Shown: piece by piece, positions 25,648-25,737 of the stretch
How the letters are laid out: every line of letters starts with the position of its first letter
How positions within the stretch are numbered: position 1 is the first letter of the stretch
Position numbers and translations under genes: made by a program
The notes under the pieces: model-generated
The model's input: only the letters and a program-made list of their open reading frames with translations
What the model was told of the DNA's origin: nothing
The model's database searches: none
UHGV virus genome: UHGV-0132373
Strand: one strand, 5' to 3'
Source of the DNA: a virus
DNA length: 29,781 bases

Positions 25648-25669
25648 GCCATCACTCCAAGTTAGTGTA

Positions 25670-25721
25670 TTGACATGATAGAAGCACTCTACTATATTCT
25701 CAATAGGTCCACCGTGGACCT
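25670..25721. promoter_or_regulatory. immI control region: face-to-face Pant (+) and Pmnt (-) promoters with Arc and Mnt operators
   Basis: Pant: TTGACA (25670-25675), 17 bp, TATATT (25693-25698). Pmnt on the - strand: TTGAGA (25703-25698), 17 bp, TATCAT (25680-25675). Arc operator-like ATGATAGAAGCACTCTACTAT lies in the shared spacer; perfect palindrome AGGTCCAC-C-GTGGACCT (25705-25721) matches the Mnt operator. Confidence 0.85.
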
Positions 25722-25737
25722 GTGTTGTGAGGTGAAC

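Follow-up and report, generated by a model that had tools for sequence, protein, structure and literature searches.

The secondary immunity region immI of phage P22 (Sauer et al. 1983; sequence records X01916 and BK000583) and the "ant moron" of phage epsilon34 (genes 16-18; Villafane et al. 2008, PMC2629481) are the closest described relatives of the locus considered here, together with the corresponding region of the E. coli K1 phage CUS-3 (CP000711). The roles of mnt, arc, sar and ant as well as the "ant moron" itself have been published (PMC11016777, PMC2629481). Arc represses "two divergent and overlapping promoters" (PMC2724298). In the lysogen arc-ant is kept off by Mnt bound over the Pant start, in lytic growth Arc shuts the two promoters, the sar RNA limits the translation of Ant, and Ant antagonises the C2-type repressor (PMC2724298, PMC11016777, PMC12111858). 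"Ant moron" denotes a variable stretch flanked by gene 16 on one side and the tailspike gene on the other, which is complete for immI in P22 and epsilon34, takes other forms elsewhere and is known for its high gene flux (PMC2629481). Phage L is devoid of arc and ant (PMC8022706), and CUS-3 has been suggested to control ant differently (PMC2629481).

We compared these systems with the window, i.e. the whole analysed stretch of 29,781 nucleotides from the virus genome UHGV-0132373. In an alignment of the mnt-arc intergenic region (25648-25737) with the two P22 records and epsilon34, 87 of the 90 bases were the same as in P22. The mismatches were found at 25713, 25724 and 25737, and left the promoter hexamers, the Arc operator and the Mnt half-sites unchanged. 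The curated features of BK000583 and X01916, which comprise both promoters, the Arc and Mnt operators and the ribosome-binding sites, transferred one-to-one onto the window. All parts of the P22 module were intact and had kept their order: mnt, Pmnt, Oarc, Pant, Omnt, arc, sar, Psar, ant and the ant terminator. As in P22, the module is flanked by a homologue of gene 16 (21841-24000), which encodes a DNA transfer protein, and by a tailspike gene (27081-29072) that encodes the P22 head-binding domain; the host of P22 is Salmonella, whereas that of the window is E. coli.

The region 25648-25737 is thus very probably the control region of a complete P22-type immI module in an E. coli P22-like (Lederbergvirus) prophage. 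Since all cis elements are identical and all trans factors orthologous, it would be expected to work as that of P22, and the switch is probably functional. In this respect the first-pass annotation, which had described a complete P22-type immI switch, was borne out. A switch of this type is already known, and to find one in a P22-like prophage of E. coli is nothing unusual.

The elements of the control region are the following:

25648-25737: mnt-arc intergenic region, 90 bp, between the mnt start codon (25645-25647, minus strand) and the arc ATG at 25738.
25655-25658, minus strand: mnt ribosome-binding site (GGAG), aligning to the site annotated in X01916 at 287-290.
25670-25698, plus strand: Pant, with TTGACA (25670-75), a 17-bp spacer and TATATT (25693-98); 11/12 consensus positions, predicted start at ~25705.
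25675-25703, minus strand: Pmnt, with TTGAGA (25703-25698), a 17-bp spacer and TATCAT (25680-25675); 10/12 consensus positions, predicted start at ~25668.
25675-25695: Arc operator (Oarc) ATGATAGAAGCACTCTACTAT, 21 bp, equivalent to the P22 protein_bind feature 14798-14818.
25705-25721: core of the Mnt operator (Omnt), AGGTCCAC-C-GTGGACCT, a perfect 8+1+8 palindrome of 17 bp with arms that are 100% complementary, obtained by palindrome search.
25729-25734, plus strand: arc ribosome-binding site (GAGGTG), corresponding to X01916 361-366.

An independent consensus scan of 25300-26100 returned Pant and Pmnt as the sole two promoter-like sites, and their hexamers and spacing were the same as in the P22 annotation (BK000583, X01916). 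The two promoters had been described as overlapping and face-to-face. They do overlap, but they are divergent: since the predicted starts lie at ~25705 for the rightward and at ~25668 for the leftward transcript, the two transcripts would run apart without sharing any sequence. Nor do Pant and Pmnt share one 17-bp spacer, as had been stated. There are two spacers (25676-25692 for Pant, 25681-25697 for Pmnt), which are offset by 5 bp and have 12 bp in common. The Arc operator had further been placed within the spacer, where it cannot fit because it measures 21 bp and the spacer 17 bp. Instead it extends between and over the hexamers, of which it includes all of the Pmnt -10 element (25675-25680), the final base of the Pant -35 element (25675) and three bases at the start of the Pant -10 element (25693-25695). 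The operator occurred in one copy in the window even if three mismatches were allowed, with 0.00 copies expected by chance.

A perfect palindromic 17-bp Mnt operator had been reported at the Pant start, and we indeed found it at 25705-25721, in register with the predicted start at ~25705. The palindrome begins 7 nt past the Pant -10 element, which places the Mnt operator at the predicted start of Pant. The 17-bp pattern was present once in the window, again with up to three mismatches allowed, while 0.01 copies are expected by chance. Compared to P22 the half-sites were the same and the centre base pair was inverted (C at 25713, G in P22). Operator changes relative to P22 were thus confined to this one position, which is a common natural variant: among 79 viral contigs of IMG/VR that carry the exact 52-bp promoter/operator core, the centre base was C in 28 and G in 51. 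The commonest Mnt allele was found 3 times with a C and 23 times with a G. Either base is thus found beside identical Mnt alleles, and the centre base varies independently of the repressor. We therefore rejected the notion that the G>C change disables binding or tracks the Mnt allele, both variants being common and the alleles mixed. From the two-fold symmetry of the site we infer that an inversion of G:C to C:G at the dyad is equivalent.

Comparing 25701-25725 among 82 related sequences, we found the Mnt site to be a perfect 21-bp palindrome (ATAGGTCCACSGTGGACCTAT) in 71 of them. The G at 25722, which the window has in common with P22, breaks the outer symmetry such that the perfect symmetry spans 17 bp. 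The allele set 25713C, 25722G, 25724G and 25737C was seen in this genome only among the 82 sequences, while each of the alleles is also present elsewhere. Judged by this distribution, the differences of the window from P22 are natural polymorphisms.

The genes and RNA elements around this region are arranged as follows:

25399-25647, minus strand: mnt, maintenance repressor of 82 aa, with a ribbon-helix-helix domain and a C-terminal tetramerisation helix.
25738-25899, plus strand: arc, ribbon-helix-helix repressor of 53 aa, first gene of the Pant operon and followed by ant.
25900-25967, minus strand: sar antisense RNA, with its own terminator hairpin at the end, complementary to the spacer between arc and ant, where the ribosome-binding site of ant lies.
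25974-26002, minus strand: Psar, inside the 5' end of ant, equivalent to the P22 feature 15097-15125 with 28 of 29 bases the same.
25968-26870, plus strand: ant, antirepressor of 300 aa (Pfam P22_AR_N 7.5e-45, P22_AR_C 9.3e-29).
26888-26907, plus strand: ant terminator, an 8-bp stem followed by a T run, from a terminator scan.

Arc, Mnt and Ant had been called near-identical to their P22 counterparts. This holds for Arc, of which 52 of the 53 residues are identical (R16K; Pfam Arc 9.8e-31; PDB 1arq/1par 5e-31), but not for Mnt (80.7%) and Ant (85.3%; 95.7% to epsilon34). Mnt (Pfam Arc 3.7e-28, Repressor_Mnt 5.6e-15; PDB 1mnt 2.2e-41) is one residue shorter than in P22, and the ~15 differences are mostly located in the C-terminal half. 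Its residues 1-13 are the same as in P22 and invariant across the related sequences. Operator specificity is reported to be set by these N-terminal residues of Mnt (Knight & Sauer 1989, as cited in PMC3413123). Concerning Arc, we considered R16K as a potentially damaging change and rejected this, since most related sequences (78 of 81) carry K16 beside an identical operator, R16 of P22 being the rare allele. The sar RNA matched the Rfam family RF00262 over its full length (1-68) with 95.6 bits at a gathering score of 43, and was 100% identical to that of epsilon34 and 97% identical to that of P22. For Psar the window carries the commonest allele among the related loci. The stretch 26871-26920 is 100% the same as in P22, where the terminator is annotated at the corresponding place.

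With these parts the switch may be pictured as follows. Two sigma-70 promoters of opposite orientation share ~35 bp, with Pant reading rightward into arc-ant and Pmnt leftward into mnt. Owing to this overlap, RNA polymerase could not occupy both promoters at once. In the lysogen a Mnt tetramer would sit on 25705-25721 over the Pant start, such that Pant is blocked and Pmnt is free; Mnt would in this way keep itself on and the antirepressor Ant off. Vershon et al. are said to have found in 1987 that Mnt binding stimulates Pmnt by removing the competition from Pant. After infection, when Mnt is absent, Pant would fire and Arc would build up, bind 25675-25695 and turn down both promoters. Transcribed from Psar, which lies within ant, the sar RNA would pair with the ribosome-binding region of ant and limit the translation of Ant. 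Ant that escapes this control would bind the C2-type prophage repressor, whereby immunity is lifted. Binding, promoter competition and the target of Ant are what we infer from P22 biochemistry and genetics.

The module resides in a complete prophage. The 3.2 kb around immI (23900-27100) were 100% the same as in the chromosome of E. coli SFAD3. The module there belongs to a P22-like prophage that is complete and is flanked by sbcB and dacD. The genes of this prophage include an integrase, a LexA-family repressor, cro/cII-like genes and functions for replication, lysis and morphogenesis. The LexA-family (C2/CI-type) repressor gene is located just left of the window and its product is the presumed target of Ant. 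At least 80% of the segment 25600-25970 was found in 133 of 5,426 complete E. coli genomes (~2%).

Over the whole window CUS-3 is the closest sequenced phage, with 68% covered at 96% identity. Its similarity comprises gene 16, hkcB, the YafO-like gene, p199 and mnt, is 96.5% and ends at 25666. Beyond this, CUS-3 differs: a second mnt-like gene replaces the P22 control region and arc, arc is not annotated and the 17-bp Mnt palindrome is absent. The mnt allele of the window is of the CUS-3 type. From 25421 onwards, i.e. from mnt through ant, the window matches epsilon34 (94.5%) and P22 (87%); of the DNA matches that span mnt-arc-sar-ant in full, epsilon34 is the closest. Epsilon34 further shares K16 in Arc and has an hkcB homologue adjoining gene 16. 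It differs in that it carries another Mnt allele, in that gene 15 (on the opposite strand) and a terminator directly follow mnt, and in that its Mnt operator is imperfect, with a T>C change of the last base inside the 17-bp core such that the 17-bp pattern does not match. Judged by these similarities, the module is a mosaic of a CUS-3-like part, which holds mnt and the genes behind it, and of an epsilon34/P22-like part with the control region, arc, sar and ant. Both similarities extend over mnt (25421-25666). Moreover, the window, P22 and epsilon34 do not differ from each other in 25610-25712, while CUS-3 matches only up to 25666. A crossover in this interval would therefore be traceless. The locus illustrates that the invariant control region of ~110 bp is placed at a mosaic junction of CUS-3-like and epsilon34-like modules.

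The right end of the window showed two additional features. Residues 1-113 of the tailspike (27081-29072) form the head-binding domain of the P22 type. For the pectate-lyase-like receptor-binding part behind it, the identical SFAD3 genome provided the only close match in ~80 related loci; presumably the tailspike has a different O-antigen or capsule specificity. Past the tailspike gene and before the host gene dacD, the last prophage gene is a hydrophobic ORF of 100 aa (29149-29451), hypothetical in SFAD3. In P22 this place is taken by the gtr genes for O-antigen conversion.

Downstream of mnt the gene content differs from that of P22, in which orf59a and sieA are found. In the window the cargo consists of p199, a YafO-like gene and hkcB:

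25372-25382, minus strand: candidate cargo -10 element TGATATAAAAT in the 42-bp gap between mnt and p199, proposed at the level of the consensus.
24757-25356, minus strand: cargo gene 1, p199, 199 aa, GTG start (phrog_18235, 5e-138).
24353-24772, minus strand: cargo gene 2, YafO-family toxin-like, 139 aa, with a 16-nt overlap with p199.
24001-24330, minus strand: cargo gene 3, hkcB-like, 109 aa (phrog_5962, 5e-61), matching hkcB of HK620 and CUS-3.

The p199 protein had no Pfam match, and in a Foldseek search against the PDB the best hit reached E = 0.18, with generic helical bundles and MukF fragments. Its AF2 model was all-helical (pLDDT 78.6) and its family is small (16 clusters). The second ORF matched PF13957 with 7.2e-12 and 45.7 bits at a cut-off of 25, and is labelled "type II toxin-antitoxin system YafO family toxin" in RefSeq. 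Like the type II toxin-antitoxin pair YafO-YafN of E. coli, the window thus has an ORF with the YafO_toxin Pfam domain as second gene of an overlapping pair, in the usual order of antitoxin and then toxin. However, the upstream partner is unlike YafN: with its predicted all-helical fold and in view of the lack of Pfam and significant PDB matches, p199 does not qualify as a YafN-type (Phd/YefM-like) antitoxin. We also considered the cargo as a defence system, and discarded this as the PADLOC matches were marginal (PtuB 0.0046; DpdH 0.00045, no significant stretch). At the far end of the cargo, the stop codons of gene 16 (plus strand) and hkcB (minus strand) abut at 24000/24001 with zero intergenic bases, and a terminator-like hairpin was not found at this junction. 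Leftward cargo transcripts would for this reason run antisense into gene 16.

A p199-family gene was found 42-45 bp behind an mnt-like gene in three phage lineages, with protein identities of 99%, 67% and 29%. The 67% relative belongs to a Salmonella prophage and the 29% relative to an unrelated siphovirus-like contig. In the two closer lineages p199 is paired with a YafO-like toxin; for the downstream partner in the distant locus (L090) a YafO-like nature was not supported, the similarity being not detectable. The same non-P22 contig has an immI-like arrangement at 1100-1180. An Arc-like gene and a Bro-N antirepressor gene are divergent from the Mnt-like gene. The start codons are only 35 bp apart, and within this gap lies the inverted repeat TATCACCGT...ACGGTGATA. 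The p199-YafO pair also stands alone in Pectobacterium chromosomes, between an ABC-transporter operon and gcvP and with no mnt (L086). The locus draws attention to this cassette as one that is repeatedly placed behind mnt.

The cargo had been described as physically linked to the switch through the mnt transcript. Such a link is possible, yet it does not hold as stated. In its favour, neither a pattern scan nor folding revealed a terminator in the mnt-cargo interval. In P22 the annotated mnt terminator lies past a downstream ORF, which makes read-through from Pmnt plausible here. On the other hand, a -10-like hexamer (TAnAAT) lies 9-12 nt upstream of the p199 Shine-Dalgarno sequence in four lineages of the junction alignment: the window together with CUS-3, Salmonella (L089), L090 (TGCTATAAT) and Pectobacterium (L086). 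The stand-alone cassette of Pectobacterium must have its own promoter because there is no mnt upstream. The cargo of the window therefore probably has a promoter of its own as well, and own transcription and read-through would not be mutually exclusive.

We give an even chance to the wider reading that a separate promoter in the 42-bp gap drives p199, the YafO-like gene and hkcB, as is the case for P22 sieA, and that the three genes are functionally not part of immI. The adjacency to mnt would then only reflect a favoured insertion site in the "ant moron", and both routes of transcription may operate. This reading draws on the -10-like hexamer kept in four lineages, Pectobacterium included, and on the Pectobacterium pair, which stands without mnt and can hence be expressed alone. 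It also agrees with P22, in which sieA has an annotated promoter of its own in the same genome region, and with the high gene flux known for the ant moron (PMC2629481). It is opposed by the lack of a terminator-like structure between mnt and p199, given which Pmnt transcripts should read through, and by the recurrence of the 42-45 bp mnt-p199 junction in three phage lineages. In addition, a standard scan requiring both hexamers called no promoter in the gap. Among the matches listed for complete E. coli genomes, 44 had cargo and mnt and 174 others had mnt only, while the cargo never occurred without mnt.

The cassette could also be wired to immI, because p199-family genes recur behind an mnt-type repressor and no terminator intervenes. 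It would then be transcribed from Pmnt while Mnt holds lysogeny, be shut off when Arc appears and act as a toxin-antitoxin-like or abortive-infection module. If true, the cassette would read out the state of the secondary immunity circuit. We consider this unlikely.

Concerning the switch itself, P22-like phages commonly carry immI regions that are degraded (PMC2629481; PMC8022706), and mnt-only or degraded arc/ant regions such as those of phage L, Scho1 and HK620 have been proposed to be decaying remnants without a regulatory role. The 15-19% divergence of Mnt and Ant from P22 could be read in this way for the present module, too. We regard this as very improbable, as all three ORFs are of full length with full-length domain matches, the promoters and operators are the same as in P22 and sar is matched over its full length at twice the Rfam threshold. 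Furthermore, the substitutions are alleles found in many other apparently intact loci, and the prophage is complete from integrase through tailspike. That the promoter- and operator-like motifs are chance matches in AT-rich intergenic DNA can practically be dismissed: promoter-like hexamer pairs are frequent (1.4 per 800 bp expected in shuffled sequence), but the exact matches of 21 bp (Arc operator) and 17 bp (Mnt operator) have expectations of 0.00 and 0.01, and the 90 bp, in an equal gene context, are 97% identical to the region of P22 that has been characterised by experiment.

For the switch, a textbook P22 Mnt/Arc/Ant/sar system, very little is at stake. One modest use of the locus is a better annotation of such genes. 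RefSeq labels the mnt and arc genes merely as "Arc family DNA-binding protein". A recent PDB deposit under the same name (9pio, chain G, 79 residues) matched Arc with E = 7e-30, near the classical Arc entries. In NC_002371.2, NC_011976.1 and phrog_795 (PHROG 795), Mnt is named "partition protein ATPase", which for a ribbon-helix-helix repressor of 82-83 aa looks like a propagated misannotation.
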